Shown here: piece by piece, positions 1,288 through 53,583 of the stretch
Layout: the number at the start of each line of letters is the position of its first letter
Numbering within the stretch: the stretch's first letter is position 1
Source of the DNA: Candidatus Margulisiibacteriota bacterium
GTDB taxonomy: Bacteria > Desulfobacterota > Binatia > HRBIN30
NCBI GenBank assembly: GCA_035541735.1
Contig: DATKMS010000266.1
Location: 28,834 to 92,833 of the forward strand
DNA length: 64,000 bases
Direction of reading: 5' to 3'
The notes under the pieces: model-generated
Database searches by the model: none
What the model was told of the DNA's origin: nothing
The model's input: the letters and a program-made list of their open reading frames with translations, nothing else
Program-made: the position numbers and the translations under genes

Positions 1288-3978
<2,691 letters not shown>

Positions 3979-4626: not shown

Positions 4627-4771
4627 CAGTCCGTTGGTCCTCCCCTGTCTCCAACGGATGTAAGCTGAAACTTGCTGCAGTGCGAGTGCAAGGGCACGCC
4701 CTGCCGCCCGCGTCGGTGCGGTTTGGCATTCGGGCCGCACGGTCGTCTGCCCTGGTTGTGATGATGGACCC

Positions 4772-5011
4772 TTACATGAGTTGCGTGGCGCGGACCGCTT
4801 CGCTCATGCGCTCCATGAAGGCGCACATGCACTGAAGTGCGGCATCCGGCCAGCTGCCGCCTTCAGCGAGGGCACACAAGGCCATGAGCACTGCGCAGCG
4901 GACAACCGCTTCCGCTTGCGGATGATCGAGGGCTGCTTGCAATGCGGGGCCGCTGGCTGCAACGTCAGCTGTGATCCACCCTTGGTCGTCGCTCACAAAC
5001 AATCGCGTCAT
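4772..5011 (-). CDS. Hypothetical 79-aa protein downstream of the sigma region-4 mini-protein
   Basis: ORF lies 47 nt downstream of 5059-5298 on the same strand. No recognisable motif. Confidence 0.35.
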   Translation of the reverse strand: MTRLFVSDDQGWITADVAASGPALQAALDHPQAEAVVRCAVLMALCALAEGGSWPDAALQCMCAFMERMSEAVRATQLM

Positions 5012-5058
5012 ATCGCACCGCCTGTAGTGCAGTCATTGGCGCTGCTCGGTTTACTAGG

Positions 5059-5298
5059 CTACACCTCGTCCCAACCTGGCAATCCCTTGTCCAGCCGCTC
5101 GATTGCGTCCACGCGCAACTTGCGCAGGGCCCGACGCTCGATGCACCCCACCGTGCGACCGGACACGCCAAGGACACGCGCAACCTGGTCGCGGGACTGT
5201 GCGCTCCGCAGGCTACCAAAGCGTAGCCGGAGCACCAACTCTTCTCGAGCATTCAGAAGCGGCTTCATCCTCCTCATCCGTCCTAACCGCGGCCCCAC
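5059..5298 (-). CDS. Stand-alone sigma-70 region 4 (HTH) mini-protein
   Basis: LNAREELVLRLRFG...SRDQVARVLGVSGRTVGCIERRALRKLR matches the region 4.2 pattern (L..RE..VL.LRFG...tl.EiA..lgvSrerVrQie.rAL.KLR). Regions 1-3 are absent. The start may be M8 or M11 (5268). Confidence 0.6.
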   Translation of the reverse strand: MGPRLGRMRRMKPLLNAREELVLRLRFGSLRSAQSRDQVARVLGVSGRTVGCIERRALRKLRVDAIERLDKGLPGWDEV

Positions 5299-5484
5299 AC
5301 TTTGCTGTTGTTGTGCGAGGTGAGCACCTGACAGAACGATAGCAACGAGTGTGCCTACAGACGCTCGCGAGCGCTGTAGTTGCTTTCAGCGACACGGGCG
5401 CTTCGCTGTATTGAGAACTGCACAACCGCGACGGACATTGCACAGCATTTAATACAGTGGGTGCCCGCACAGGGGTAGGGGCGA

Positions 5485-19873: not shown

Positions 19874-19888
19874 AGCAGGAAGGCATGG

Positions 19889-20644
19889 ATGTCAGGCACG
19901 CTTGCCGGCAAAGTCGCACTGGTCACCGGCGCCTCCCGAGGAATCGGTCGAGCCATCGCACACAAGCTCGCCGTGGCCGGCTGCGACGTCGCCGCCAACT
20001 ACTACAACAGCCACGACGAGGCTGCAGCGCTGTGCGCCGAGATCCGTGCCCTCGGTCAGCGGGCGTATGCGATCCAGGGCAACGTCGCCAACCCGGAAAG
20101 CGTCGATGAGATCATCGCCGCGTTTCGTACGCATTTCGACCACCTCGACTTTCTGGTGAGCAACGCCGCCAGCGGTGTGCTCAAGCCCGCGCTGGAGATG
20201 ACGCTCAAGCATTGGCGCTGGTGCCTGGAAACCAACGCCCTGGCCCTGAACCTCCTGGCGCAGCGGACGGTGCCACTGATGCCGCCGGGCAGCCGCATCG
20301 TCGCGATCTCCAGCCTTGGGGCGCACTATGCCATGCCGAGCTACGGCTTCGTCGGTGCCTCGAAGGCGGCGCTGGAATCCTTGGTGCGCACGCTGGCGCA
20401 AGAACTCGGACCGCGCGGCATTCGCGTCAACGCGGTGAGCGCCGGACCAGTCGATACCGATGCGTTGCGCTCCTTCCCGCAGCGTGAACAGCTGCTCGCC
20501 AGCTTTGCACAGCGCGCGCCAGCCGGGCCCGTACTGAGCACTCAGGACGTCGCGGGAGCTGTCTATCTCCTCTGTCTTCCCGAGGCCAGCATGGTGTCGG
20601 GGCATACCTTGGTGGTCGACGGCGGATTTTCCATTGTGAGCTGA
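19889..20644 (+). CDS. fabL: FabL-type enoyl-[ACP] reductase (SDR)
   Basis: KVALVTGASRGIGRAIA. NAASGVLKPALEMTLKHWRWCLETNALAL, ISSLGA...VGASKAALESL and VNAVSAGPVDTDALRSFPQRE closely parallel B. subtilis FabL as recalled from memory. Confidence 0.75.
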   Translation: MSGTLAGKVALVTGASRGIGRAIAHKLAVAGCDVAANYYNSHDEAAALCAEIRALGQRAYAIQGNVANPESVDEIIAAFRTHFDHLDFLVSNAASGVLKPALEMTLKHWRWCLETNALALNLLAQRTVPLMPPGSRIVAISSLGAHYAMPSYGFVGASKAALESLVRTLAQELGPRGIRVNAVSAGPVDTDALRSFPQREQLLASFAQRAPAGPVLSTQDVAGAVYLLCLPEASMVSGHTLVVDGGFSIVS

Positions 20645-20659
20645 CGGCTGACGACACCG

Positions 20660-21430
20660 ATGCCTGCAAGCTTTCTGCACGACTCCGGTCTCGCCAACAA
20701 GGTCGCCATCGTCACCGGTGGCAGCCGCGGGATCGGGCGGGCCATCGTTGAGCTCTTTGCCGCGGAGGGTGCCGAGGTGACCTTCCTCTTTCGGGAAAAC
20801 ACCTCGGCCGCAGCTGACGTCGTCGCTGCGGGACGCGCCGCCGGGCAGCAGATTGCCGCGGAGCAAGTAGACGTGTGCGACGCCGACGCGTGCGCCGCGC
20901 TGGTGGAGCGGGTGGCGGAGCGCTGCGGGCGCATCGACGTGTTGGTCAACAACGCCGGCATCATCCGCGACAATCTGCTCGGCTTTCTTGAAACCGATGA
21001 CGTGCACGCCGTCCTCGACACCAACGTCGGTGGGGTGTTCAACGTCACGCGCGCGGTCGTGCCGCACATGATCGCCCGCCGCGCCGGCACGATCATCAAC
21101 GTCAGCTCCGTGGCCGGCGACAGAGGCGGGCGCGGGCAAACCAACTACGCTGCCAGCAAGGGTGCGATCAACGCCTTCACTCGTGCGCTGGCGGTAGAGC
21201 TGGCACCACGCCGGATCACGGTGAACGCGGTCGCTCCCGGGGTCATCGAAACCGAGATGTCGCGACAGCTGCGCGAGCGTGCCGGCAGTGAGGTGCAGTC
21301 GCGCATTCTGCTGCGCCGGCCGGGGACGCCGCTGGAAGTTGCCTATGCGGTCTGCTTCCTTGCCTCGCGCTATGCCGAATACATTACGGGGCAAGTGCTG
21401 CACGTCGACGGCGGATTCAAGATGGAGTGA
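20660..21430 (+). CDS. fabG: 3-oxoacyl-[ACP] reductase
   Basis: KVAIVTGGSRGIGRAI, NNAGIIRDNLL, SSVAG...NYAASKGAINAFTRALAVELAPRRITVNAVAPGVIETEM, and a C-terminal ITGQVLHVDGGF. Confidence 0.85.
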   Translation: MPASFLHDSGLANKVAIVTGGSRGIGRAIVELFAAEGAEVTFLFRENTSAAADVVAAGRAAGQQIAAEQVDVCDADACAALVERVAERCGRIDVLVNNAGIIRDNLLGFLETDDVHAVLDTNVGGVFNVTRAVVPHMIARRAGTIINVSSVAGDRGGRGQTNYAASKGAINAFTRALAVELAPRRITVNAVAPGVIETEMSRQLRERAGSEVQSRILLRRPGTPLEVAYAVCFLASRYAEYITGQVLHVDGGFKME

Positions 21431-21436
21431 AGCGAA

Positions 21437-21868
21437 GTGATGCCGATGGAGATCAGCAGGGAAGAGGTGCTGGCGGTGCACCCGAAGGTTGCCGAGATCA
21501 TGGCCGATGCGCTGGCATGCGACGTCGAGCAGCTCGGGCTCGACGTGCCGCTCATCGACGGGCTCAATGCCGAATCGATCGACTTCCTCGACATGGTCTT
21601 CCGCCTCGAGCGCGCCTTCAAGGTGAAGATCCCACGCGGCAAAATCGTCGAGGATGCACGCGGCGAGCTGTCGGAAGCCGAGTTCGAACATAAAGGCGTG
21701 CTGACTGACGCGGGTCTGGCGCGGCTACGCGCCTACCTGAGCGAGGTGCCGGCCGAGCGCTTCCAGTCGCCCATGAAGGTGGCCGACGTGCCGCGGCTGT
21801 TCACGGTCGAGACATTTTGCCGGCTCGTCGTGCGCGCCCGGCGCACGGCCGGGCTGGCAACTCCTTGA
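21437..21868 (+). CDS. Acyl carrier protein with ~60-aa C-terminal extension
   Basis: Helix II region LIDGLNAESIDFLDMVFRLERAF corresponds to the DSLD Ser attachment motif. Total length is 143 aa versus about 80-95 for FAS ACPs. Confidence 0.7.
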   Translation: MMPMEISREEVLAVHPKVAEIMADALACDVEQLGLDVPLIDGLNAESIDFLDMVFRLERAFKVKIPRGKIVEDARGELSEAEFEHKGVLTDAGLARLRAYLSEVPAERFQSPMKVADVPRLFTVETFCRLVVRARRTAGLATP

Positions 21869-21894
21869 ACCACCTTGCCGACAGGTTCGGGGAC

Positions 21895-22737
21895 ATGCTG
21901 CCCCAGCAGCTCGGCACCTTCTCATTCGTCGACCGCATCACCGACAGCGAGGCCGACACGCGTGCGCGCGGCTCGTTCGCCATTCCCGCGGCGCTGGCGC
22001 ACTTCTCCCCTTGCCTGGTCGCCGAAGCAGTGGGGCAGCTTGCCGCATGGGTCGTAATGGCGCGGCATGATTTCCGGCGGCGGCCGCTCGCGGCACTGGC
22101 CGGCGAGGCACATCTCCTCGCTGATGCACTGCCGGGCCGGATTCTCGAACTTGGCGTCGAGATCGAAGAGTGGGATGATGACGCCGTGGGGTATGCGGGC
22201 TGGGCATCCATCGGCGACACGCCGGTCATCCAAGTGAGGAACTGTGTGGGAGCGCTGTTGCCGCTGGAGAACTTCGACGACCCGGTGACGGCACGCGATC
22301 GCTTTGCGTTGCTGCGCGGTCCAGGTGCTCAGCCCGGTCGCTTTCCTGGCGTCGCCGATGCCGGCATCCGGTTGATCGAGCGTGAACCGGGCAGGCGGCT
22401 GCGGGCGTTGATGAACGTTCCGGAGTCAGCGCCATTCTTTGCGGAGCACTTTCCACGTCGTCCGCTGTATCCGGCGACGCTCCTTCTCGATGCCCAGATC
22501 CGCCTGGCCATCGACCTGGCGCGCGAGGTGGATCGGCCGGCGGCGTACGTCCGTGTTCGGCCCGTGCGGGTCGCGGACGTCAAGCTGCGATCATTCATCC
22601 TTCCCGGTCAGGCGATAGAGACAACGGCGGAGGTGGCTGCGGGGTCGAGCCATACGGTGCTCATTGCGCTCGCCGCCACAGTGGAGGGAAAGCGGGTGGC
22701 GACAGCGCGTGTGGAAGTGGCCGCGGAGGAAACGTGA
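21895..22737 (+). CDS. Double-hotdog FabA/FabZ-like beta-hydroxyacyl-ACP dehydratase
   Basis: First half FSFVDRITD...AHFSPCLVAEAVGQLAAW. Second half ESAPFFAEHFPRRPLYPATLLLDAQIRL (FabZ-like HF..P..PG pattern). An alternative TTG start at 21865 would overlap the ACP stop. Confidence 0.65.
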   Translation: MLPQQLGTFSFVDRITDSEADTRARGSFAIPAALAHFSPCLVAEAVGQLAAWVVMARHDFRRRPLAALAGEAHLLADALPGRILELGVEIEEWDDDAVGYAGWASIGDTPVIQVRNCVGALLPLENFDDPVTARDRFALLRGPGAQPGRFPGVADAGIRLIEREPGRRLRALMNVPESAPFFAEHFPRRPLYPATLLLDAQIRLAIDLAREVDRPAAYVRVRPVRVADVKLRSFILPGQAIETTAEVAAGSSHTVLIALAATVEGKRVATARVEVAAEET

Positions 22738-24035
22738 GCACGGAACGACGCCGCGTCGCGGTCACCGGGTTGGGTCTCGTCACCCCGCTCGGCAACGATG
22801 TCCGCACGACGTGGGAGGCCTTGCTCGCCGGCCAGAGTGGCGTGGGCCCGATCACGACCTTTGACGCGAGCGGCTTTCCCGTGTGCATCGCCGCCGAGGT
22901 GAAGGAATTCGAGCCGACTCGACACATCGACGACCGCAGACTGCTCAAGTTCGCCAGCCGCTTGCACGCCTTCGCGCTGGTTGCTGCCGACGAAGCGCTG
23001 CACGATGCCGGCATCCGACCGGTTGCGGACACTGCGGAGCGCTGGGGTTGCGTCGTAGGCAGCGGCATCATGGGCAGCGAGTTTCATGAGCTCGCGGCGG
23101 TGCAGCGCGCTTGCGCACCCGATGGCCAGCTGAGTGTGCCGCGTCTCTTTGCCGATGACGCGGCTGCGGATCCCATGGCATTCTGCCGCAGCCAGACGAG
23201 TGCGGGGCTGGGTGTGTTGTTGCGGCGCTTCGGCATTCGCGGCTACGCCAGCACCGTGCATACCGCCTGTGCATCCGGAGGCCAGGCGGTGGGGTTGGCG
23301 ATGAAGTTGATCCGGCGAGGCACTGCCGACTATGTGCTCGCCGGCGGCTGCGACTCGATGATCAATCCCGTCGGGCTGTCGGGCTTCTGTTTGCTCGGCG
23401 CCCTCTCGCCCGACAGCGACGCGCCGCAGCGGGCCAGTCGCCCCTTCGATGCCACGCGCAACGGCTTTGTGCTCGGAGAGGGCGCCGGCTTTCTCGTGCT
23501 CGAAGAGTGGACGGCGGCATGCCGACGCGAGGCGCGCATCTACGCGGAACTCGCCGGGGACGGCAACTCGTTGAGCAGTTACCGCATCACCGACTCCCAT
23601 CCATCCGGCGATGGGCCGATCCAGGCGATGCGCCAGGCTTTGGCGGACGCCGGAGTGCTCCCGGAAGAGGTGGACTACTTGAACGCCCACGGTACATCGA
23701 CACCAATGAACGACCGCAGCGAGTGTGCCGCGGTGCGCGCGGTGTTCGGCGCTCACGTGCCGCAGATTGCCGTGAGCTCGACCAAGAGTCTCATGGGGCA
23801 TCTCATCGCCGGCGCCGGCGCCGTCGAGGCGGCCATCTGCGCCCTGGCTATCCATCACGGCGTCCTGCCGGTGAACGCGAACCTCGAAGAGCCCGATCCG
23901 GAGTGTGCGCTGTCATTCGTTCTTGCCCGGCCCCATCGCCAACATGTGCGCGTGGCCATGTCGAACTCATTCGGCTTCGGCGGCTCGAACAGTTGCGTTG
24001 TCCTACGCAACACCGAAGCGGTGCGCGGGAAGTGA
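22734..24035 (+). CDS. Beta-ketoacyl-ACP synthase (FabF/FabB-like, catalytic triad intact)
   Basis: RRVAVTGLGLVTPLGN. Cys site VHTACASGGQAV. His sites NAHGTSTPMND and KSLMGHLIAGAG. GTGA overlap with the dehydratase stop. Confidence 0.9.
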   Translation: MSTERRRVAVTGLGLVTPLGNDVRTTWEALLAGQSGVGPITTFDASGFPVCIAAEVKEFEPTRHIDDRRLLKFASRLHAFALVAADEALHDAGIRPVADTAERWGCVVGSGIMGSEFHELAAVQRACAPDGQLSVPRLFADDAAADPMAFCRSQTSAGLGVLLRRFGIRGYASTVHTACASGGQAVGLAMKLIRRGTADYVLAGGCDSMINPVGLSGFCLLGALSPDSDAPQRASRPFDATRNGFVLGEGAGFLVLEEWTAACRREARIYAELAGDGNSLSSYRITDSHPSGDGPIQAMRQALADAGVLPEEVDYLNAHGTSTPMNDRSECAAVRAVFGAHVPQIAVSSTKSLMGHLIAGAGAVEAAICALAIHHGVLPVNANLEEPDPECALSFVLARPHRQHVRVAMSNSFGFGGSNSCVVLRNTEAVRGK

Positions 24036-24041
24036 AGACGG

Positions 24042-25319
24042 ATGGGCGCCGACGCAACGCGGGTGACGATCACCGGCGCCGGTGCGATCTGCGGCGCCGG
24101 CAAGGACCCGGACGCAATCTGGGAGGTGGTGCGCGCTGGGCGATCGGCAATTGCACCGATTCGCCAGTGGGAGGCTGCGGGTGTGCCGCTGCCGCCGGCC
24201 GGCGAGGTCGCGGATCTGGACGCGCGCGAGCTGGTCGCGGATCGCAAGGTCCACAAGGTGCTCCGGCGCACGGACTTGCTCGGCTTGTACGCGGCGGGCA
24301 AGGCCATCGAGGACGCGTCTCTCGTCGCGTATCGCGCGACCCTTGATCCCGTCGCTGCCGCAACCTACAGCGATCGTACCGCGGTCTTCGTCGGCTCAGG
24401 CGGCGGCACGTATCAGAGCCAATACGATTTCTTCCCCTTGCTCACGGCAGTGCAGGGGGACCTGCGCGCGTTTGGCGGCGCGCTGAACGCGACAATCAAC
24501 CCGATGTGGTTGTTGCGCACGCTGCCGAACAACGTGCTGTGTCATATCGGGATACGATATGGGTTCAAGGGGGCGAACGCCTGCGTGACGCATCACAGTG
24601 TCAGCGGAACGCTGGCCATCGCCGAAGCCGCCGCGGCGCTGCGTGCAGGCGAGGCGGAGCGTGCCGTCGCCGTCGGACACGACGCGCCGATCGAGCCACA
24701 GACCATCCTCTACTACCAGCGACTCGGGCTCCTCGCGGCGGATGCCATTCGCCCCTTTGATGGTGCGCGTAGCGGCAGCCTGCTCGGCGAGGGTGCAGCG
24801 GCAGTGGTGCTCGAGACGGCAGCGGCCGCCGCCGCACGCGGCGCCAAAGTCCTCGGCGAGTTCCTCGGCAGCGCTTGCACTGCCGAAGCAGAAGGGCTGT
24901 TGGCCATCCGCGCCGACGGCGACGGCCTGGCACGTGCCATCACACTGGCGCTCGACGACGCCGGGCTGCAGCCTGCCGATGTGGGCATGATCGTGGCGCA
25001 TGGCAACGGCACGCGTGCGTCCGATGCGGTGGAAGCCGCCGTGATCCAGCGGCTGTTCGGCCGGACGCCGCCACCAGTCACCGCGTTCAAGTGGGCGTTC
25101 GGCCACCTCCTGGCTGCCTCCGGTGTCGTCGACGCGGTGCTGGCGCTGATGGCCCTACGCCGCGGCATCGTGCCCGGTATCGCGACGCTGTGTCACCGCG
25201 ATCCCGAGTTCGGAGGTTTGCCAGTATCTGCCGGGCCACAGCTGCCGCGCAGCAACGTGGCGCTGGTCATCAGCCGCGGCTTCGCGGGGACTACCGTCGT
25301 GCTGCTCGTCCGAGCGTGA
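24042..25319 (+). CDS. Ketosynthase-like partner subunit with Ser at the active-site Cys position (chain-length-factor-like)
   Basis: Thiolase-fold KS throughout. The active-site region reads NACVTHHSVSGTLAI instead of xTACASG. The His motifs VAHGNGTRASD and FGHLLAASG are retained. Confidence 0.8.
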   Translation: MGADATRVTITGAGAICGAGKDPDAIWEVVRAGRSAIAPIRQWEAAGVPLPPAGEVADLDARELVADRKVHKVLRRTDLLGLYAAGKAIEDASLVAYRATLDPVAAATYSDRTAVFVGSGGGTYQSQYDFFPLLTAVQGDLRAFGGALNATINPMWLLRTLPNNVLCHIGIRYGFKGANACVTHHSVSGTLAIAEAAAALRAGEAERAVAVGHDAPIEPQTILYYQRLGLLAADAIRPFDGARSGSLLGEGAAAVVLETAAAAAARGAKVLGEFLGSACTAEAEGLLAIRADGDGLARAITLALDDAGLQPADVGMIVAHGNGTRASDAVEAAVIQRLFGRTPPPVTAFKWAFGHLLAASGVVDAVLALMALRRGIVPGIATLCHRDPEFGGLPVSAGPQLPRSNVALVISRGFAGTTVVLLVRA

Positions 25320-25327
25320 GGGTGACG

Positions 25328-26536
25328 ATGGCAATGACGGTGCGTTCGGATCCGCTGATGCGCTGTGGTATCGACACCGTGGAGATTGCCCGCGTCGAGC
25401 GCCTGCTCCGCGAGACTCCCGCTGACGATCTCCTCAAGATCTTTTCTCGTGAGGAGTTATTGGAGAGTGGTCACAATGCGGGGCGCGCCGCGAGCCTGGC
25501 GGCGCGGTTTGCGGCGAAGGAAGCGTGCCTCAAGCTCTTCCCGAGCGAAACGGCGCTGGGCGTGATCGGCCCGAGCGACTTTTCCGTCGCCCGTGACGGC
25601 TACGGCGCACCCCAGGTCAGGTGCAGCCACAAGGCTCTGGAGGTCTTGGATCGGTACCGGGTCAAAACCATCGCGCTGTCGTTGACACACGACAAGACCA
25701 GCGCGTCGGCTGTCGCTCTGTCTGAGCCCGCCCACGTCGACGTGCCACGCAGCGGCAAGATCATCTTCTACCTGCTGCCGATTCGCCGACAGGTGATGTT
25801 GGCCAATCTGTATCGCGTCTTCGGCGGGCGGCTCACCAATGCGGATATCAAGCGTCTCGCCCAGGCGCACTACGGGCATCTCGCCCGCGTGTGCATCGAG
25901 TTCTTCACGTCTGCGTGGCGCTCACCGGCCGTCCGCGTGGAGAACATCGACGCCATCCTGCGCGCGCACGCGCAGGGGAAGGGTGTGCTCGTGCTCACCG
26001 GCCATTTCGGGAATTGGGAGGTGGCGACCGTCGGCGGCATCCAGACCTTCCCCGAGTATCGCGGGCAGTTTCACTTCGTCCGGCGGCCGCTGTTCCCGCG
26101 GTGGCTCGAGCGTCTGGTGACGCGACGCTTTCGCCGCAGCGGCCTCGGCGTGTTGCCGAAGCGCGGCGCGCTCGATGCGATTCTCGACCGCCTGGCAGCC
26201 GGCGATGCCGTGGTGTTCGTCTTCGATCAGCATGCGGGCGGCAGAGACGGCATCGCCGTCGACTTCTTCGGGTACGCAGCCGGCACCTTTCGCAGCCTCG
26301 CAGTCATCGCGCTGGCCACCGGTGCGCCGGTCGTGCCGAGCGCGACGTGGCGGGAGGCGGACGGGAGCCACGTGCTGCGGTTCGAGGAAGCGCTACCCGT
26401 CATCGAGGACGAAGATACGAACGCGGCGATCCGCGCCAACACGCGCGCCTACAACGCGGCCATCGAGCGGCTCGTCCTGCGGCACCCCGAGCAGTGGTTC
26501 TGGCTGCATCGGCGGTGGAAGCCGACTTCTCCGTGA
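25328..26536 (+). CDS. Fusion protein: AcpS-type holo-ACP synthase (PPTase) plus lipid A late acyltransferase (LpxL/HtrB family)
   Basis: N-terminal ~125 aa: CGIDTVEIARVERLL, ARFAAKEACLKLF, IALSLTHDKTSASAVAL. The rest: YLLPIRRQVMLANLYRVFG, LTGHFGNWE (HX4E), FDQHAGGRDGIAVDFFG, HPEQWFWLHRRWK. There is no stop or frame change between the halves. GTG at 25322 is an alternative start. Confidence 0.8.
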   Translation: MAMTVRSDPLMRCGIDTVEIARVERLLRETPADDLLKIFSREELLESGHNAGRAASLAARFAAKEACLKLFPSETALGVIGPSDFSVARDGYGAPQVRCSHKALEVLDRYRVKTIALSLTHDKTSASAVALSEPAHVDVPRSGKIIFYLLPIRRQVMLANLYRVFGGRLTNADIKRLAQAHYGHLARVCIEFFTSAWRSPAVRVENIDAILRAHAQGKGVLVLTGHFGNWEVATVGGIQTFPEYRGQFHFVRRPLFPRWLERLVTRRFRRSGLGVLPKRGALDAILDRLAAGDAVVFVFDQHAGGRDGIAVDFFGYAAGTFRSLAVIALATGAPVVPSATWREADGSHVLRFEEALPVIEDEDTNAAIRANTRAYNAAIERLVLRHPEQWFWLHRRWKPTSP

Positions 26537-26612: not shown

Positions 26613-27296
26613 CTACCCGAGGGCGACAGGCGGCCCCCACCCGCGTGCGGCGGTTGCGAGAAACGCCTCCTGGATTTCCTGTACGCTGTAGGCGGCCCCC
26701 TCAGCCGTCGGAGGCAACAAGCGCAGCTCCGCCTCCACCCGTGCAAACGGCAGAGGCAGGCGGGCACGGTCCCACGACTTGAACGTGACGGCGTGGCTGG
26801 CCGCGGTTCTGGCAACGACCACCGCTGCATGCGCCGCGGACACCGTGCGTGCCACACCGTCCTTGACCACGCCGCGCGGGCCACGCGGTCCATCGACTGC
26901 CAGAACGCCGATGGCACCCGCTTGTATGCGCTGAATGAACTCCTGCGCGCCGTCGACGCCGCGCGTAGCGCTCGGCAGCGCGACGGAATCGACGCCGAAG
27001 TGGTTGAGCGTGGCGGCCATGAGTCTGCCGTCGAGGCTCGGGGTCAACAGCCCGAGCCAGCGGCGTCCGAATGGCTCCCACATGCGGGCCCAGGCCAGCG
27101 ATGGCGGCAGCTCCCCGTGGCATACCACCACGATGACCCGCGGCTGCCGGGCGATTTCCTGCACCGTCGCCTCCGGCAGTTCACGCCGCCGCCAGCTCCA
27201 GACCAACAGGCGAAGCGGAACGATGGCGACGGGCACCACCAGCTTTTCGAGAATCCAGAAGCGCAGCTCCCGCAGCCGTCTGGTCAATGGAGCCAT
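26613..27296 (-). CDS. DUF374 family protein (lysophospholipid-acyltransferase-like, usually Kdo-transferase associated)
   Basis: N-terminal helix followed by ...VVVCHGELPP...LLTPSLDGRLMAATLNHFGVDSV...GAIGVLAVDGPRGPRGVVKDG, which is typical of DUF374 proteins. Confidence 0.7.
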   Translation of the reverse strand: MAPLTRRLRELRFWILEKLVVPVAIVPLRLLVWSWRRRELPEATVQEIARQPRVIVVVCHGELPPSLAWARMWEPFGRRWLGLLTPSLDGRLMAATLNHFGVDSVALPSATRGVDGAQEFIQRIQAGAIGVLAVDGPRGPRGVVKDGVARTVSAAHAAVVVARTAASHAVTFKSWDRARLPLPFARVEAELRLLPPTAEGAAYSVQEIQEAFLATAARGWGPPVALG

Positions 27297-27312: not shown

Positions 27313-28200
27313 TCAGCGGTGGGCGAGGCGGGCGCCGCACAGCTTCTCCAAGATACTGAGCGGTGCCTTGTCGGGTAGGAGCAGGCTGCGGCGCGGGATG
27401 ATGTAGGTTTGCTCCAAGGCGTAGCGTCCCGACAGCGCCGCGTGCGGCACGAAATCGGTGAACACGATCCAGGTCGAATTCGGCGGAAACTCCCACTCGT
27501 GTTTCTTGCACGTGGCTTGGAACAGGCGATTCGCCTTCAGGTAGTCGTGAAAACGCAGCATGAGATCGTCGTAGAGCGAGGGCTGCCGAACGCGGATGCC
27601 GGCGGCACGGGCTGCTTTGACGATGCGGCGGCGCCACTGCGTCGCCACGGGCAGTGTCAGCGCCGCTGAGCCGGTGAACTGCGAGGCCAAGACGTCGAAG
27701 GCATCGGTGGTCACCCAGCGGCGCGGCTCGCGCGGATTGATATTGCTGAACACCCGCAGAATGCGGTTGCCATTGGTCGGCCGCGAAGGAAAGGCGTCGA
27801 TGTGTAACAGGTCGTTGCGCGCCCGCCGCGGCAGGCTGCGTCCCTCCTCCTCTTGCGGCCGGAAGCTGGCGTAGTCGACCGTCCACGCCCCGGCGTAGAG
27901 CGGCAGCAGTGATGCCAGAAAGTGTGTGACCTGTTGCGAATATCGCCGCATGATGGAACGCAGCGTCTCTGCATCCCCCGAGTGGCGCTCGACGAACCCG
28001 CTGACACGGTCCCGCTGCGGTTCATAGGCGATGTTCTTATGACGCCTATCCAATTGTTGGGCGAGCAGGAACGCGCGCTGGTCAGCGTCGAGGTCGAAGG
28101 GCAGTTGAGGAAACACGAGCAGCTGCCCCTCCTCCAGGCGCCTGCTGTACGCGCGTCCCTGGTCACCATTTCCGTTGTCGTTGGGTTGTGACAAGTTCAT
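27313..28200 (-). CDS. kdoO: Kdo hydroxylase (Fe(II)/2-oxoglutarate Kdo2-lipid A dioxygenase family)
   Basis: LLHIDAFPSRPTNGNRILRVFSNINPREPRRWVT (HxD facial-triad motif) and VFTDFVPHAALSGRYALEQTYIIP (distal His) match my recollection of the Kdo_hydroxy family. The context is waaF, DUF374 and waaA. Confidence 0.7.
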   Translation of the reverse strand: MNLSQPNDNGNGDQGRAYSRRLEEGQLLVFPQLPFDLDADQRAFLLAQQLDRRHKNIAYEPQRDRVSGFVERHSGDAETLRSIMRRYSQQVTHFLASLLPLYAGAWTVDYASFRPQEEEGRSLPRRARNDLLHIDAFPSRPTNGNRILRVFSNINPREPRRWVTTDAFDVLASQFTGSAALTLPVATQWRRRIVKAARAAGIRVRQPSLYDDLMLRFHDYLKANRLFQATCKKHEWEFPPNSTWIVFTDFVPHAALSGRYALEQTYIIPRRSLLLPDKAPLSILEKLCGARLAHR

Positions 28201-30245: not shown

Positions 30246-30441
30246 GACGACCGGGCCGGGCGGGCCGTACGGTACATGCACAAGTCCTCTTCACATGTGA
30301 GACGGAACACGTTACAAACCGGCCGCGGCTGGAGGTCTCGACATCGCTGACGGGCACCGGAGGAAACGTGGCGATGGGCGATGACAGCGCGGCGGCCATG
30401 TGCTGCACTCCGTGATTCTCGGCAACATCGGACAAGTCACC

Positions 30442-33400
30442 ATGAGCGAAACGCGCAAGCTGGCGGCAATCATGTTCACCGACATCGCGGGCTTCACCGC
30501 GTTGATGGGAGCGGACGAGCAGAAGGCGCTGCGTGTGCTCGCGCAGAGCCGCGCCTTGGTGCGGGAGCTGCTCCCGCAGTTCCACGGGGCGGTGATCGAA
30601 GACCTCGGGGACGGGACATTGTGTAGCTTCCAGAGCGCGCTCGAAGCCGTGCAGTGCGCGCGCGTCATTCAGGAGTCATTGGGCAACGATCCTGATCTGC
30701 GTCTGCGCATCGGCATTCACGTCGGCGACGTCATCTTTTCCGCAGACGAGGTCATCGGCGACGGCGTCAACGTCGCCTCGCGGATCCACGCGCTGGCCGA
30801 GCCGGGCGGCATATGTGTCTCCGAGCAGGTCTACGATGCCATTCGCAACCAACCCGACATTCGGGCGACGTCTTTGGGAGAGCGCCGCCTCAAGAACGTG
30901 AATCGCTCGGTGAAGGTGTATCTGCTGAACGCCGCGCCTTTGCTGGCACCCAGCGGCATCAGCGCACCGCAGCCGGTCGAGCCGTTGCCGCCCCCTGAGA
31001 GAGCGCGGCGCCAGCTCACGCTGGTGTGCTGCCGCCTGACGGTGGCCAGCCTCGCAGGCACCGCCGTCGATCTGGAAGAACTCGACCAGGTGCTCCACGC
31101 CGAGCATGCGGTGTGCGCCGAGATCGCCGCCCGCAACAACGGTCAAGTCGCCGGGGTCATGGGGGACCGTGTCCTGCTGGTCTTTGGCTACCCACAGGCG
31201 CAGGAAGATGATGCCAGGCGGGCGGCGCGTACAGCGCTGCAGATTGCGGCGGAAGTGGAACGCGTGAGCGGCCGTCTGCAGCCTGAACGCCATCTGCGGC
31301 TGGACGTGTGCATCGGTGTGCACACGGGCCTCGTGGTCGTGCGTGAGGTGCGACAGGGGGCCGGCTACGCGCTCGGCGCCATCGTCGGCCCGACCCCGCA
31401 GGTGGCGGCCGCGCTGATGGAACGTGCCGGCGCCGGCGAAGTCCTTGTCAGCTCCGCTACGCATGAGCTCCTGCACGGAGAGATCGAGGCGGAGCCTGAG
31501 GGAACCCTCGCCGTCTCCGAGCCGTCGGGAAGCCTTGGCGTCTTTCGGCTGATTTGCGAACAGCCGCGTCGGGTGCGGTTGGAAATGCCGCCGGCCACGC
31601 GCGAGACGCCGCTGGTGGGGCGGGTGCGGCAACTGGGCGATCTGCTCGAGGCGTGGAGCCGTACGCAGGCAGGGCAAGCCGAAGCGGTTTTCATCCGGGG
31701 AGAACCGGGCATCGGCAAATCTCGTCTCGTGCGCGAGCTGCGCCGCCAGGTCCCCAACAACTCCTGGCTGGAGTGCCGCTGTGTCGTGGAGGACCAGGAC
31801 ACCCCACTGCGTCCGGTCGTGGATTTGCTCGGCGCCGTCGAGGCGCCGTTCGAAGAGTTGCTGGCGGGGTACGGCTTTGATCTCGCCGAGACCGTTCCGC
31901 TGTTTGCGGCGTTGCTCTCACGGCCCTTCAACGGCCGCTACCCGCCGTTGGTGCTGTCACCGGAACGGCAGAAGGAGCTGACGCTGAACGCGGTGCTGGC
32001 GTTGCTCCTCAAGATGGCTGAGCGACGCCCGCTGGTGTTTGTGCTGGAAGATTTGCATTGGGCCGATCCGACGACGCTGGAACTGACCGGCCTGCTCCTG
32101 CAGGAAGTGCGCACGGCTCAAATGCTCGGCACGCAGCCGGCGCCGCGCCTCTGTCTGCTGCTCACCGCCCGAACGGAGTTCGACCCGCCGTGGTCGACCG
32201 ACCGGGTGGCGATCATCCAGCTGGCGCCGCTCGGCCGGCAAGAAGTGGAACAGATGATCACCGCCGGGCTGGCGCATGACCAGAGCGTTCCGACCGCGGT
32301 GGTCGAAGCCATCGTCGAGCGGGCCGATGGCATTCCCCTTTTCGTCGAAGAGGTGACCCGAGTGCTGATCGAGTCCGGTGCCTTGCAGAACGGAGAGCGG
32401 CGCCCGGCGGACAGTTTCCCCTTCCCGATTCCGAGCAGCCTGCGCGACCTGCTCACCGCGCGCCTCGACCGCCTGTCACCGGGCGCCAAGGAAACCGCCC
32501 AGCTCGCGGCGCTCCTGGGACGCGAATTTCGTTACGACGTCTTACAGGCGGTGGCGCGCAAGGACGAATGGATCTTGCAGGAGGATCTTGCCGACCTGAC
32601 CACCGCGGGCCTCGTCTTTCACCGCCGCGGCGTGCACAGCGATAGCTACGTCTTCAAGCACACACTGGTGCGCGACACGGCCTACGAATCGATGGTCCGC
32701 TCGACACGTCAGGCCCTGCACCTGCAAGTGGCAAAGGTTCTGCAGCGGCAGTTTCCGGAAACCGACGAGCTGCGTCCGGAGATCCTGGCGCAGCACTTCG
32801 AGCAGGGCGGCGATCTGGCGACCGCCGTCGACTACCGGCATCGGGCTGGAGATCTGGCCTTCAAGCGCGCCGCGTACATCGAAGCGGCGCAGCAACTGGA
32901 ACGTGGACTCGCGCTGTTGCGCGGCTTGCCGGAGTCGCCCACACGCGACCGGCAGGAGATTGAGCTGCTCACGACCCTGGGCACGGTGCTCTTCTCGACG
33001 AGAGGGCACGCTGCGCCCGAAGTTGAGCAGACGTTTTCGCGGGCTCGAAAGCTCTGCGAGCGGCTCGGTGAGGATCTCTCGCTGAAGGTCCTCGCGGGTA
33101 TCGCATCCGTGTACATTGCGCGCAGCGACCGCGAGGCGACCGCGGCGCTGCTGCCGCGCTTTGAACGGTTGACCGCGCGCACTGATGACGTCGTCGCATC
33201 CATTACCGGTCACGCCGTGCTCGGGGGCGCCGCGTTCTGGAGCGGCGACTTCGTCGGCGCACGGCAGCACCTGGCAATCGCCAAGGGCTTCTACGGAACG
33301 GAGGAGTTCAAGCGCTTCTCGCGCGACTATGGCTACGATGGAGGGTTCTTTATCTACCCCTACACGATGTCGATCCTCTGGAACCTGGGATACCCGGACC

Positions 33401-34101
33401 AAGCCGAAGCGCTGCGACAGGAGTCGCTGGCCATCGCCGCAGCGTCCGGGAATCTCTACTCCATTCTGATCGCGTTGGGATTCGCTGCCCCATTGACGAA
33501 CGATCTCGGGCAACCGGATGTCACGCTGGTGCTCGCCGACCGCTTGATCGCGCTGTCCACCGAGCAGCGCCTGTACTTCTGGTCGGCAATCGGCATGCTG
33601 GCACGGGGTGGCGCACTCGCGCAGCAGGGAAACCTCGACGAAGCCATCGCGCTGATCTCCCAGGGCCTCGACGTGTGCCGCAGCGTCGGCATATTTGCCA
33701 GCTACGGCTACTACCTGACGTACCTGGCGGAGGCATACGCGCACGCGGGAAAGGTGGACGAGGGACTGCGGGTCGCAGAGGAAGGCATCGCCCGCTGCCG
33801 GACGGATCTCACGCGCTTCCACGAGTCGGACCTGCATCGTTTGCAGGGTGACTTGTTCGTCCTGCAAGGCAATGCCAGCGCCGCCGAAGCCAGCTATCAG
33901 CAGGCGCTCGAAGTTGCCCGACGACAGAGCGCCAAATCGCTCGAGCTGCGCGCGGCGACCGGCTTGAGCCGTCTGTTGCATGCGCAGGGACGGACGAGTG
34001 AAGCCCGCACGCTGTTGCAAGGCGTCTACGGTTGGTTCACCGAGGGCTTCGAGACGAAGGATCTTCGAGACGCTCGCGGTCAGCTCGCCGAACTGGGCTA
34101 G
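30442..34101 (+). CDS. Class III adenylate/guanylate cyclase, degenerate second cyclase-homology domain, STAND P-loop NTPase and TPR sensor protein
   Basis: LAAIMFTDIAGFTALMG...DLGDGTL...IGIHVGDV...GDGVNVASR. Second domain RRQLTLVCCRLTV...MGDRVLLVFGYP...IGVHTGLVVV. Walker A GEPGIGKSRLV. Walker B-like LVFVLEDLHWAD. The C-terminal ~500 aa is made of TPR-like helices. Confidence 0.85.
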   Translation: MSETRKLAAIMFTDIAGFTALMGADEQKALRVLAQSRALVRELLPQFHGAVIEDLGDGTLCSFQSALEAVQCARVIQESLGNDPDLRLRIGIHVGDVIFSADEVIGDGVNVASRIHALAEPGGICVSEQVYDAIRNQPDIRATSLGERRLKNVNRSVKVYLLNAAPLLAPSGISAPQPVEPLPPPERARRQLTLVCCRLTVASLAGTAVDLEELDQVLHAEHAVCAEIAARNNGQVAGVMGDRVLLVFGYPQAQEDDARRAARTALQIAAEVERVSGRLQPERHLRLDVCIGVHTGLVVVREVRQGAGYALGAIVGPTPQVAAALMERAGAGEVLVSSATHELLHGEIEAEPEGTLAVSEPSGSLGVFRLICEQPRRVRLEMPPATRETPLVGRVRQLGDLLEAWSRTQAGQAEAVFIRGEPGIGKSRLVRELRRQVPNNSWLECRCVVEDQDTPLRPVVDLLGAVEAPFEELLAGYGFDLAETVPLFAALLSRPFNGRYPPLVLSPERQKELTLNAVLALLLKMAERRPLVFVLEDLHWADPTTLELTGLLLQEVRTAQMLGTQPAPRLCLLLTARTEFDPPWSTDRVAIIQLAPLGRQEVEQMITAGLAHDQSVPTAVVEAIVERADGIPLFVEEVTRVLIESGALQNGERRPADSFPFPIPSSLRDLLTARLDRLSPGAKETAQLAALLGREFRYDVLQAVARKDEWILQEDLADLTTAGLVFHRRGVHSDSYVFKHTLVRDTAYESMVRSTRQALHLQVAKVLQRQFPETDELRPEILAQHFEQGGDLATAVDYRHRAGDLAFKRAAYIEAAQQLERGLALLRGLPESPTRDRQEIELLTTLGTVLFSTRGHAAPEVEQTFSRARKLCERLGEDLSLKVLAGIASVYIARSDREATAALLPRFERLTARTDDVVASITGHAVLGGAAFWSGDFVGARQHLAIAKGFYGTEEFKRFSRDYGYDGGFFIYPYTMSILWNLGYPDQAEALRQESLAIAAASGNLYSILIALGFAAPLTNDLGQPDVTLVLADRLIALSTEQRLYFWSAIGMLARGGALAQQGNLDEAIALISQGLDVCRSVGIFASYGYYLTYLAEAYAHAGKVDEGLRVAEEGIARCRTDLTRFHESDLHRLQGDLFVLQGNASAAEASYQQALEVARRQSAKSLELRAATGLSRLLHAQGRTSEARTLLQGVYGWFTEGFETKDLRDARGQLAELG

Positions 34102-52023: not shown

Positions 52024-52203
52024 CTTTGCGGCCCCCCGCGTTTCCTTCCCCCTCGTCGCGCACTACCTCTCGTTTGCGGTGCTCAAGCACTTCAGGAGGC
52101 AAATGCACTTTGTTGGCGCGCGCGCTCCGTGCTAAACCCACCCTTCGTAGCTCGCCCGACAGCGAGTCCGGTGCATGCACCTGCAAGCTCGAGGAGGTGG
52201 AGA

Positions 52204-53583
52204 ATGGCACGCAGCGTTCGTCTCACCATGGTTCTGTTGTTCCTTACCGCAGTGCCCGCCGTTGCCAAGCCGCCCCGGAAACAACAGGTCTCCAAGGGAT
52301 CCAAGGCAGAGATGAGTGCGGAGAGTCGGGCGTGCTACAAATGTCATTCGGAAAAGACGCCGGTCATTGCGCAGCAATGGGCCGAGTCCAAACATGCGAC
52401 GCTGGGCGTCGGCTGCTTCGAATGTCACCACGCCGATGCGGCGGATGCCGATGCGTTTACGCACTACGGCCAGACTATTGCGATCATCGTCACCCCGAAG
52501 GACTGCGGCGTCTGTCACGTCAGCGAGACCGCAGAGTTCACCCAGAGCCACCACGCCCAGGCGGCGCAGTTCATCGGTTCGCTCGACAACGTCCTCGGCG
52601 AAATGGCGGAGGGGTCGTTGGCTGCCGCCAACGGCTGTTGGCAATGCCACGGTTCGACCGTCCGCCTGCTCGCCGGCGCCGACGGTGCGCCGCTGAAGGA
52701 CGAAAACGGCAAGCCGAAGATCGATCCATTGACCTGGCCGAACACCGGCATCGGCCGGGTCAATCTCGACGGTAGTCGCGGCTCATGCTCCGCGTGCCAC
52801 TCGCGGCACATCTTCAGCCGCGCGGTTGGCCGCTATCCTGATACCTGTGGCAAATGCCACATGGGCCCCGATCATCCGCAGATTGAAATCTACAACGAGT
52901 CGAAGCACGGCATCGCCTTTCACGCCCGCGAAGCCGACATGCACCTCGACAAGGAGTCGTGGATCGTCGGCAAGGACTACAGCGCGGCACCGACGTGCGC
53001 GACCTGCCACATGAGCGCGACCGCAACCCAGCCGGTCACGCATGACGTCGGCGCACGGATCAGCTGGACCTTGCGTCCGGTCATTTCCAAGAAGCTCGAG
53101 AATTGGGAGAGCCGCCGCGGCAAGATGCAGGAGGTGTGCACCAACTGCCACGGCCCGGACTTCATCAAGGCGTTCTACGTGCAGTACGACAAGACGGTGG
53201 AACTGTACAACGACAAGTTCGCCAAGCCGGCGCAGCAGATCATGGACGTGCTGCGCGCCAAAAAGAAGATCACCCCGGACCCGTTCGACGACCAGATCGA
53301 ATGGACCTTCTACTTTCTCTGGCATCACGAAGGCCGGCGCGCGCGTATGGGGGTGTCGATGCAGGGCCCCGACTACACGCAATGGCACGGCTTCTTCGAA
53401 GTGGCGCACCGCTTCTACTTCGAGCTGATCCCGCAAGCGCAGGGGCTGGCGGGTGGGGATCCAGACATCACCAAGGTCATCGACGACATCCTGGCGCAGC
53501 CCGACCACGCCTGGCGCAAGGGCCTGGCGCCGGAGGAGCGCCAGAAGATCCTGGATTTCTACAAGCAGCGCTACGGGCAGTGA
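52204..53583 (+). CDS. HAO-family octaheme cytochrome c (hydroxylamine oxidoreductase / epsilon-Hao-like)
   Basis: Signal peptide MARSVRLTMVLLFLTAVPAVA. Eight CxxCH motifs (CYKCH, CFECH, CGVCH, CWQCH, CSACH, CGKCH, CATCH, CTNCH). Family-typical CSACHSRH and CGKCHMGPDHPQIEIYNESKHG. Confidence 0.8.
   Translation: MARSVRLTMVLLFLTAVPAVAKPPRKQQVSKGSKAEMSAESRACYKCHSEKTPVIAQQWAESKHATLGVGCFECHHADAADADAFTHYGQTIAIIVTPKDCGVCHVSETAEFTQSHHAQAAQFIGSLDNVLGEMAEGSLAAANGCWQCHGSTVRLLAGADGAPLKDENGKPKIDPLTWPNTGIGRVNLDGSRGSCSACHSRHIFSRAVGRYPDTCGKCHMGPDHPQIEIYNESKHGIAFHAREADMHLDKESWIVGKDYSAAPTCATCHMSATATQPVTHDVGARISWTLRPVISKKLENWESRRGKMQEVCTNCHGPDFIKAFYVQYDKTVELYNDKFAKPAQQIMDVLRAKKKITPDPFDDQIEWTFYFLWHHEGRRARMGVSMQGPDYTQWHGFFEVAHRFYFELIPQAQGLAGGDPDITKVIDDILAQPDHAWRKGLAPEERQKILDFYKQRYGQ

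Follow-up and report, generated by a model that had tools for sequence, protein, structure and literature searches.

A fusion of an AcpS-type phosphopantetheinyl transferase and an LpxL-type acyltransferase at the end of a seven-gene fatty-acid elongation operon

Within a 64,000-nucleotide stretch of contig DATKMS010000266.1 (GenBank assembly GCA_035541735.1, Binatia; this whole stretch of analyzed DNA is termed the window), one open reading frame (ORF) on the plus strand, 25328..26536, encodes an AcpS-type and an LpxL-type domain in a single polypeptide. The translation comprises 402 codons and a single terminal stop without interruption, in agreement with an initial annotation of this DNA made from its letters alone. 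All motifs quoted there were found in the translation, namely GIDTVEIARV, ARFAAKEACLKLF and SLTHDKTSASAVAL for the AcpS part, and YRVFGG, GHFGNWE, FDQHAGG..VDFFG and HPEQWFWLHRRWK for the acyltransferase part. The ATG start codon at 25328 is located 8 nt past the stop codon (25317-25319) of the preceding ketosynthase gene, and the sequence upstream of it, GAGGGTGACG, contains the Shine-Dalgarno-like sequence GAGGG. The AcpS-type 4'-phosphopantetheinyl transferase domain (amino acids (aa) 11-133; 25358..25726, plus strand) was assigned by PF01648, TIGR00556, Foldseek and conserved residues. It is followed by the linker EPAHVDVPR (aa 134-142; 25727..25753, plus strand), a conserved GK..Y..LP.RR motif directly after this linker, and the LpxL/PatA-type (LPLAT) acyltransferase domain (aa 143-398; 25754..26521, plus strand), assigned by PF03279, Foldseek and the HX4E dyad. 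An AlphaFold2 (AF2) model of the fusion, a check proposed in the initial annotation, was built from 32 homologues and reached a mean pLDDT of 84 and a pTM of 0.75, with pLDDT values of 83-92 at the junction of the two domains; structure search recovered the expected folds. In a six-frame search with domain-specific hidden Markov models (HMMs), no AcpS or LpxL gene other than the fusion was detected in the window.

Homologous fusions were retrieved in two ways. Among the best 120 matches of a search against 5.8 billion proteins, 119 are proteins of 381-430 aa featuring both Pfam domains, and the source names of these homologues refer to NC10/Methylomirabilis, Nitrospira, Burkholderiales and Deltaproteobacteria metagenome-assembled genomes (MAGs). 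Furthermore, one genome per GTDB species was scanned and the 80 best loci were taken, all of which originate from MAGs. These loci belong to Methylomirabilota, Binatia, Casimicrobiaceae and other Burkholderiales, and Verrucomicrobiota, the carriers within the latter phylum being Limisphaerales, Chthoniobacterales and Verrucomicrobiales. One continuous ORF is present in 73 of the 80 species-representative loci; the linker is of identical length in all of them and aligns without gaps across the 73 sequences. The non-continuous loci were long-read MAGs in which all genes are frameshifted, loci cut by contig ends, and one short contig without the AcpS part. An indel at 25.70-25.75 kb, considered in the initial annotation as a possible cause of a spurious fusion, is refuted by the 73 continuous ORFs, the constant linker and the two-domain structure of 119 of the 120 homologues.

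A few candidate exceptions were inspected individually. An apparent internal stop in the Binataceae locus L050 proved to be merely the terminal stop of a continuous ORF. The seemingly unfused close homologue P0102 was discarded because its source is a frameshifted long-read contig, and the over-long fusions P0148, P0189 and P0246 were rejected as frameshift garbage. In a Chthoniobacteraceae MAG (L074, a 3.8-kb contig), KS2 is followed by an LpxL-type gene (2694-3539) that has no AcpS domain; since the lineage otherwise has the fusion, this may represent a natural deletion or a misassembly.

The identity of the N-terminal half as an AcpS domain, as initially annotated, was borne out by HMM cut-offs, fold match and conserved catalytic residues. 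PF01648 (ACPS) matched aa 13-105 with 37.6 bits (Pfam gathering cut-off 25), and the NCBIfam model TIGR00556 (phosphopantetheine-protein transferase domain) scored 53 bits (cut-off 45.35). The equivalog model TIGR00516 scored 45.6 bits and thus remained under its cut-off of 59.8, for which reason the AcpS half is not called an equivalog. Using phmmer, Vibrio cholerae AcpS (3qmn) was matched at E 2e-10, and in a Foldseek search of the AF2 model against the PDB the same structure gave a TM score of 0.85. Across 3qmn, 5vcb and 2jbz, TM scores were in the range of 0.80-0.86 at rmsd values of 2.1-2.9 Å. The phosphopantetheinyl transferase (PPT) domain of fungal fatty acid synthase (FAS) was also matched by the N-terminal half. 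Based on conservation, the putative Mg2+/CoA residues on the plus strand are D16 (25373-25375), E65 (25520-25522), K69 (25532-25534) and H121; the first is kept in 72 and each of the other three in all 73 fusions, which represent four phyla. All four positions align with invariant columns of the Escherichia coli, Bacillus subtilis and other stand-alone AcpS proteins; in B. subtilis, the counterparts of D16, E65 and K69 are presumably Asp8, Glu58 and Lys62.

Compared with stand-alone AcpS enzymes (E. coli; V. cholerae, 3QMN; Streptomyces coelicolor, 2JBZ), the fused domain has the same size and fold, the Asp/Glu/Lys catalytic residues and the (S/T)xTH motif. In contrast to them it runs covalently into an acyltransferase, has K.FP.ET.L where they have the canonical KA.GTG. 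loop, and carries DGYGAP in place of D..GKP. AcpS enzymes are homotrimers whose active sites are shared at subunit interfaces, and phosphopantetheinyl transferases are usually separate enzymes, covalent integration being known from fungal FAS and a few polyketide synthases. In the alpha subunit of fungal type I FAS (2WAS/2WAT), to which the N-terminal domain shows likeness in both sequence and fold matches, an AcpS-family PPT is built into the chain and activates its own acyl carrier protein (ACP). There, however, it forms the C-terminus of a 1,880-aa chain of a eukaryotic megasynthase, whereas here it forms the N-terminus of a presumably membrane-associated acyltransferase.

The C-terminal half was matched by PF03279 (Lip_A_acyltrans) on aa 143-398 with 135.3 bits (E 3e-39; cut-off 22.3), so that both halves pass the family HMMs named in the initial annotation. 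GHFGNWE, proposed there as the HX4E dyad of an LpxL/HtrB-family domain, corresponds to H226 (26003-26005) and E231 (26018-26020) flanking FGNW, and this dyad is kept in all 73 fusions. The Pfam match covers profile positions 42-294 of 295; the absent segment corresponds to the N-terminal transmembrane anchor of classical LpxL/LpxM, and the AcpS module occupies the place of this helix. In Foldseek searches with the AF2 model, the half matched PatA (7ojt) with a TM score of 0.81 (E 7e-15) and LpxM (5kn7) with 0.66 (E 2e-13); AcpS, PatA and LpxM were likewise the PDB sequence matches of the fusion. With Acinetobacter baumannii LpxM (5KN7) and mycobacterial PatA (5F2T), the fusion has its PF03279 fold and HX4(D/E) dyad in common, and in being without an N-terminal transmembrane helix it is like PatA and unlike LpxL/LpxM. 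The acyltransferase half resembles PatA at least as much as LpxM. Among NCBIfam models, the lipid A acyltransferase models (120.6 and 96.5 bits) scored higher than the phosphatidylinositol mannoside (PIM) acyltransferase model (70.6 bits).

Selection on the two halves was estimated by the Nei-Gojobori method for 24 pairs with 78-96% amino-acid identity. With a median dN/dS of 0.16 in the AcpS half and 0.14 in the acyltransferase half, purifying selection acts on both domains. Judged by these low values and the invariant or near-invariant residues, both halves look functional.

The fusion gene stands last in a tightly packed plus-strand operon that encodes a FabL-like enoyl-ACP reductase (ER), FabG, an ACP, a dehydratase (DH), the ketosynthases KS1 and KS2, and the fusion. 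This gene order was found in essentially every related locus with sufficient flanking sequence. A scan of the operon for promoters and terminators yielded nothing informative. The first gene (19886..20644), with a likely start at M93 of an ORF opening at 19610, scored 326.5 bits with the NCBIfam FabL model (cut-off 328), and its position is conserved in related loci. The FabG-type 3-oxoacyl-ACP reductase (20660..21430), assigned by NCBIfam and by synteny in related loci, exceeded the cut-off of 222 for the FabG subfamily PRK12826.1-2 with 245.8 bits, and scored 268.9 bits with TIGR01830, under the equivalog cut-off of 297.75.

The ORF at 21437/21440-21868 had been claimed to encode an ACP, which is corroborated by a PF00550 match on aa 17-70 and by the attachment serine in an AESID motif, conserved in 70 of 70 loci. 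This dedicated ACP (21440..21868, 142 aa) carries, past the helix II/III region and ahead of the last helix, an insertion of approximately 45 aa (RGKIVEDARGELSEAEFEHKGVLTDAGLARLRAYLSEVPAERFQSPMKVADVPR); the whole protein, insertion included, is conserved from NC10 to Legionella (56% identity). A single-sequence AF2 prediction of the 142-aa protein reached a pLDDT of 42 and is an unusable model. The operon's ACP is presumed to be the substrate of the AcpS domain.

The FabZ/FabA-like dehydratase (21895..22737) features a double-hotdog structure. It consists of tandem hotdogs of about 280 aa in total, of which the C-terminal half alone is matched by PF07977 and the FabA/FabZ models; the orthologue from Legionella matches FabA and the aryl-polyene ApeI-like family. 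KS1 (22734..24035) is FabF-like (TIGR03150, 452 bits) with an intact Cys-His-His triad, and the cysteine of its TACASG motif is present in 78 of 79 loci. In L099, a frameshift-rich long-read contig with a close relative of the window locus, an AbiEii toxin-like gene (4765-5427) was observed inside the stretch in which KS1 is expected. KS2 (24042..25319) is also FabF-like, with both the N- and C-terminal Pfam ketoacyl-synt domains, and carries serine at the nucleophile position. At this position, Ser occurs in 56 loci, Cys in 18, every one of them from Verrucomicrobiota, and Ala/Gly/Val/Thr in 11, depending on the clade: NC10, betaproteobacterial and Binatia loci have Ser, the Verrucomicrobiota loci without exception Cys, and Legionellales Ala/Gly/Val. 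Both His residues of KS2 are kept throughout loci L001-L095. KS2 is probably a chain-length-factor-like subunit, and its clades look like such a subunit at different stages of cysteine loss.

The operon is surrounded by genes for lipopolysaccharide (LPS) biosynthesis. Upstream, the window encodes KdtA, LpxB, a heptosyltransferase and an ArnT-like protein. A DUF374 protein (26613-27296) and the Kdo hydroxylase KdoO (27313-28200), both on the minus strand and converging on the end of the fusion gene, are encoded downstream and followed by a second heptosyltransferase and more glycosyltransferases. Elsewhere in the window there are genes for an Omp85 protein, an ABC transporter ATPase and still other glycosyltransferases. 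Similarly, the Binataceae locus L050 has kdtA-lpxB upstream and GT9-kdoO downstream of the operon. In view of the flanking lpxB, kdtA, kdoO and heptosyltransferase genes, lipid A is most likely the acceptor of the acyltransferase.

In an exhaustive HMMER search over 1.84 billion cluster representatives, the fusions fell into a handful of 50%-identity clusters. The next matches were unfused acyltransferases of 276-303 aa, 43-49% identical to aa 142-399 of the fusion and likewise without a membrane helix. Loci L082 and L083 show the order lpxB-KS1-KS2-lpxL and L089 the order lpxB-lpxL-?-DUF374-MsbA-like, and the nearest unfused relatives in L082 and L089 were located directly downstream of lpxB. 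Moreover, one locus (L081, metagenome DRR203897) comprises KS2, a separate acpS gene encoding 125 aa (1113-1490), a 3-nt gap, lpxL and then uvrA; it is the sole split-acpS state found. Compared over its whole sequence, the L081 AcpS is most similar to ordinary stand-alone AcpS enzymes in unrelated contexts, so the split state is a single case so far. However, K.FP.ET.L (for KA.GTG.) and DGYGAP are common to the L081 AcpS and the fused domains and absent from canonical AcpS, which suggests that they stem from a common specialized lineage. As a separate observation, the proteins P0154, P0155, P0185 and P0186 (~585-617 aa) each have a tandem pair of LpxL-like stretches, a further uncommon architecture in this acyltransferase family.

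The L081 acyltransferase has its relatives in Legionella and Tatlockia, the Legionella ones being named 'lysophospholipid acyltransferase family protein' by PGAP. In L. israelensis (CP041668), L. oakridgensis (CP004006) and two Legionellales-like contigs, an operon of the order SDR-ACP-DH-KS1-KS2-LpxL-like was found, with an ACP of 137-142 aa; in the two Legionella species the ACP has 137 aa and the acyltransferase is of the WaaM type. Identities between Legionella and window proteins determined by tblastn were 58-62% for the short-chain dehydrogenase/reductase (SDR), 56% for the ACP, 58% for KS1, 41% for KS2, 46% for the LpxL-like protein and 27-28% for the DH. Gene order and ACP insertion match those of the window, and the Legionella acyltransferase is also without an N-terminal membrane helix; unlike the window operon, the Legionella operon has neither an AcpS domain nor a FabG gene, and its KS2 carries Ala/Gly/Val at the nucleophile position. 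On the basis of these sequence comparisons, the Legionella operon is regarded as orthologous to that of the window.

Legionella lipid A contains ester-linked C27-C30 acids, including 28:0(27-OH), 28:0(27-oxo), 30:0(29-oxo) and 27- and 29-dioic acids, and 27-oxo-octacosanoic acid (27-oxo-28:0) was found in the lipid A of all Legionella species studied (PMC7867332). In papers on L. pneumophila, lpg0359 appears under the name of a putative ACP, lpg0361 and lpg0362 are called FabB-like, and lpg0363 is listed as WaaM with the description 'lipid A biosynthesis acyltransferase' (PMC9112007, PMC13200437). We infer that lpg0359, lpg0361, lpg0362 and lpg0363 presumably constitute the orthologous operon.

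A further point of comparison is the rhizobial acpXL-fabZXL-fabF-fabF-lpxXL cluster, for which very-long-chain fatty acid delivery to lipid A is experimentally established (PMC5613085). In Rhizobium, Sinorhizobium and Bradyrhizobium the cluster reads acpXL-fabZXL-fabF2XL-fabF1XL-(adhA2XL)-lpxXL. It shares with the window (21440-26536) a dedicated ACP, a FabZ-like DH, two FabF-like ketosynthases, one with and one without the catalytic Cys, and an LpxL-family acyltransferase in last position. Proteins of S. meliloti (L098) are identical to those of the window at 35% (ACP), 33% (DH), 38% (KS1), 24% (KS2) and 27% (acyltransferase). In contrast to the window, AcpXL has 95 aa and is without the insertion, FabZXL is a single hotdog, no reductases are present and the order of the ketosynthase genes is reversed. 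Furthermore, S. meliloti LpxXL possesses an N-terminal hydrophobic helix (19-residue hydropathy of 1.78 at aa 18), unlike the fusion, and the rhizobial cluster has no phosphopantetheinyl transferase, either as a separate gene or as a fused domain. As judged from these sequences, the Rhizobium acpXL-lpxXL cluster is a distant analogue.

Taken together, we consider it likely that the fusion protein is bifunctional, first priming the ACP of the operon and later passing the completed chain on to lipid A. It would be a cytoplasmic, peripherally membrane-associated enzyme ending a self-contained type II fatty-acid elongation operon. Based on family and conserved residues, the AcpS domain is predicted to move 4'-phosphopantetheine from CoA to the serine of the apo-ACP. 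This domain is probably homotrimeric like other AcpS enzymes, in which case the fusion would probably be a trimer bearing three acyltransferase domains. KS1/KS2 together with the ketoreductase, DH and ER would subsequently extend an acyl primer on the ACP into a saturated chain of defined and probably very great length; a very long chain is the probable product in view of the Legionella orthology and the rhizobial parts list. As suggested by its family, the HX4E dyad and the LPS context, the LpxL-type domain would finally, on the inner side of the cytoplasmic membrane, add this chain as a secondary acyl group to a Kdo-lipid A precursor. Both activities would be cytoplasmic, so no topological conflict arises, and the fusion would ensure one-to-one co-expression and co-location of the ACP activator and the ACP's final consumer. 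The coupling of ACP activation to acyl delivery, already put forward in the initial annotation, is consistent with three findings: the fusion is always located in one operon with the ACP, both domains are under purifying selection, and in the split relative acpS lies immediately upstream of lpxL. The coupling itself and the acceptor are deduced from context.

Several observations weigh against this assignment. No membrane helix was detected in the fusion, the top 19-residue Kyte-Doolittle value being 1.46. None of the NCBIfam equivalog cut-offs for LpxL, LpxM, LpxP and PatA was reached; the top model PRK08419 scored 120.6 bits (cut-off 248) and TIGR02207 81 bits (cut-off 297.8). The best solved relative, PatA, uses an acyl-CoA donor and acylates phosphatidylinositol mannoside, not lipid A. 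AcpS needs trimerization, with which three attached domains of 260 aa may not be compatible. The window proteins are only 24-38% identical to the proven Sinorhizobium AcpXL/LpxXL proteins. In the Legionella and Legionellales-like operons examined, no acpS was present within the operon; cultured Legionella therefore run the orthologous operon without a dedicated AcpS, and the special ACP would not strictly need its own transferase. Moreover, lpg0359-0363 were not assigned to the long-chain acids in the studies describing them (PMC9112007, PMC13200437).

Two other readings of the locus were judged less likely than a bifunctional enzyme acting on lipid A. According to the first, the acyltransferase acts on another membrane lipid or glycolipid, in a PatA-like, lysophospholipid-type or aryl-polyene-type manner, and the operon makes a specialized lipid. 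The best PDB matches to PatA, the PGAP name of the Legionella relatives, the LpxL/LpxM scores below the equivalog cut-offs and the ApeI-like match of the dehydratase orthologue are in favor of such an acceptor, which nevertheless appears rather unlikely: in both the window and L050 the operon is embedded in lipid A/core genes, relatives are found right after lpxB, an enoyl reductase is part of the operon, and lipid A acyltransferase models outscore the PIM model. Aryl-polyene clusters typically have genes for an adenylating enzyme, a methyltransferase, a LolA-like protein and an MMPL exporter, which the operon does not contain; assignment to an aryl-polyene or flexirubin-type cluster was set aside on account of the enoyl reductase and the LPS context.

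According to the second, the AcpS domain is no longer a transferase and serves as an ACP-docking, trimerization or membrane-avidity module, the ACP being primed by the housekeeping AcpS. Such a module would recruit acyl-ACP and stand in for the missing membrane helix, which would fit its location exactly at the position of the N-terminal hydrophobic helix of classical LpxL/LpxXL, the functioning of Legionella operons without a dedicated AcpS, and the presence of stand-alone AcpS genes in Binatia, a class that also carries the fusion. However, pure docking would not need Asp16, Glu65, Lys69 and the histidine of the SLTH motif, each kept in 72-73 of 73 fusions across four phyla, and the dN/dS of the AcpS domain equals that of the catalytic acyltransferase half. 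In addition, the nearest unfused relatives do without a membrane helix as well, so no AcpS domain is required to replace one. A loss of transferase activity is therefore considered unlikely.

As a very unlikely variant, the AcpS domain may go beyond priming of the housekeeping kind and load an acyl-phosphopantetheine starter, e.g., 3-hydroxybutyryl from its CoA ester, onto the apo-ACP, and it may also form a trimeric hub holding the ACP at the membrane-bound acyltransferase throughout the cycle. Among the genes of the operon there is none for a loading enzyme of the FabH or FabD type, and acyl-CoAs can be used by AcpS-family enzymes in vitro; hence, the fused domain might load an acyl starter. 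If true, the system would represent a minimal self-priming, self-delivering lipid A tailoring machine, and the K.FP.ET.L and DGYGAP motifs near the active site would, in the case of starter loading, reflect altered donor specificity. Finally, an assembly or sequencing artefact joining two adjacent genes, for which the split arrangement in L081 and broken versions in several long-read MAGs might be cited, has practically no likelihood and is already refuted by 73 independent continuous ORFs with the same linker length from varied studies, assemblers and phyla, by both domains in 119 of the 120 top database proteins, and by frameshifts in all genes neighboring the broken versions.

Regarding the wider meaning of a bifunctional enzyme acting on lipid A, the fusion may be read as a 'Rosetta stone' that places a dedicated carrier protein, a private fatty-acid elongation set and a late acyltransferase in the same pathway. 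The fusion also points to the Legionella operon as the likely source of the hallmark C27-C30 lipid A acids of this genus. Furthermore, the lipid A of Methylomirabilota, Binatia, Casimicrobiaceae and many Verrucomicrobiota is predicted to carry an unusual long chain, which would matter for the rigidity of the outer membrane and for the way innate immunity recognizes lipid A.

The initial annotation had regarded the domain architecture as undescribed. In a literature search, no published description of the fusion, or of long-chain lipid A in these phyla, was found, in line with that statement. In the databases, by contrast, hundreds of copies are deposited under the generic names '4'-phosphopantetheinyl transferase superfamily protein' and 'KDO2-lipid IV(A) lauroyltransferase' assigned by PGAP and JGI. 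The components and the pathway logic are known, in contrast to the covalent joining of AcpS and acyltransferase; apparently undescribed as well are the widely distributed seven-gene operon and its Legionella orthology.

Two further genes of the window were noted. Adjoining the LPS genes downstream of the operon, a gene on the plus strand (30400-34101) encodes a 1233-aa protein with adenylate/guanylate cyclase and AAA_16 ATPase domains as well as TPR repeats; the same neighbor is present in L099. Moreover, a multihaem cytochrome of about 484 aa resembling MtrC/MtrF is encoded at 52129-53583 (plus strand) amid O-antigen-type glycosyltransferases and an ABC transporter ATPase.

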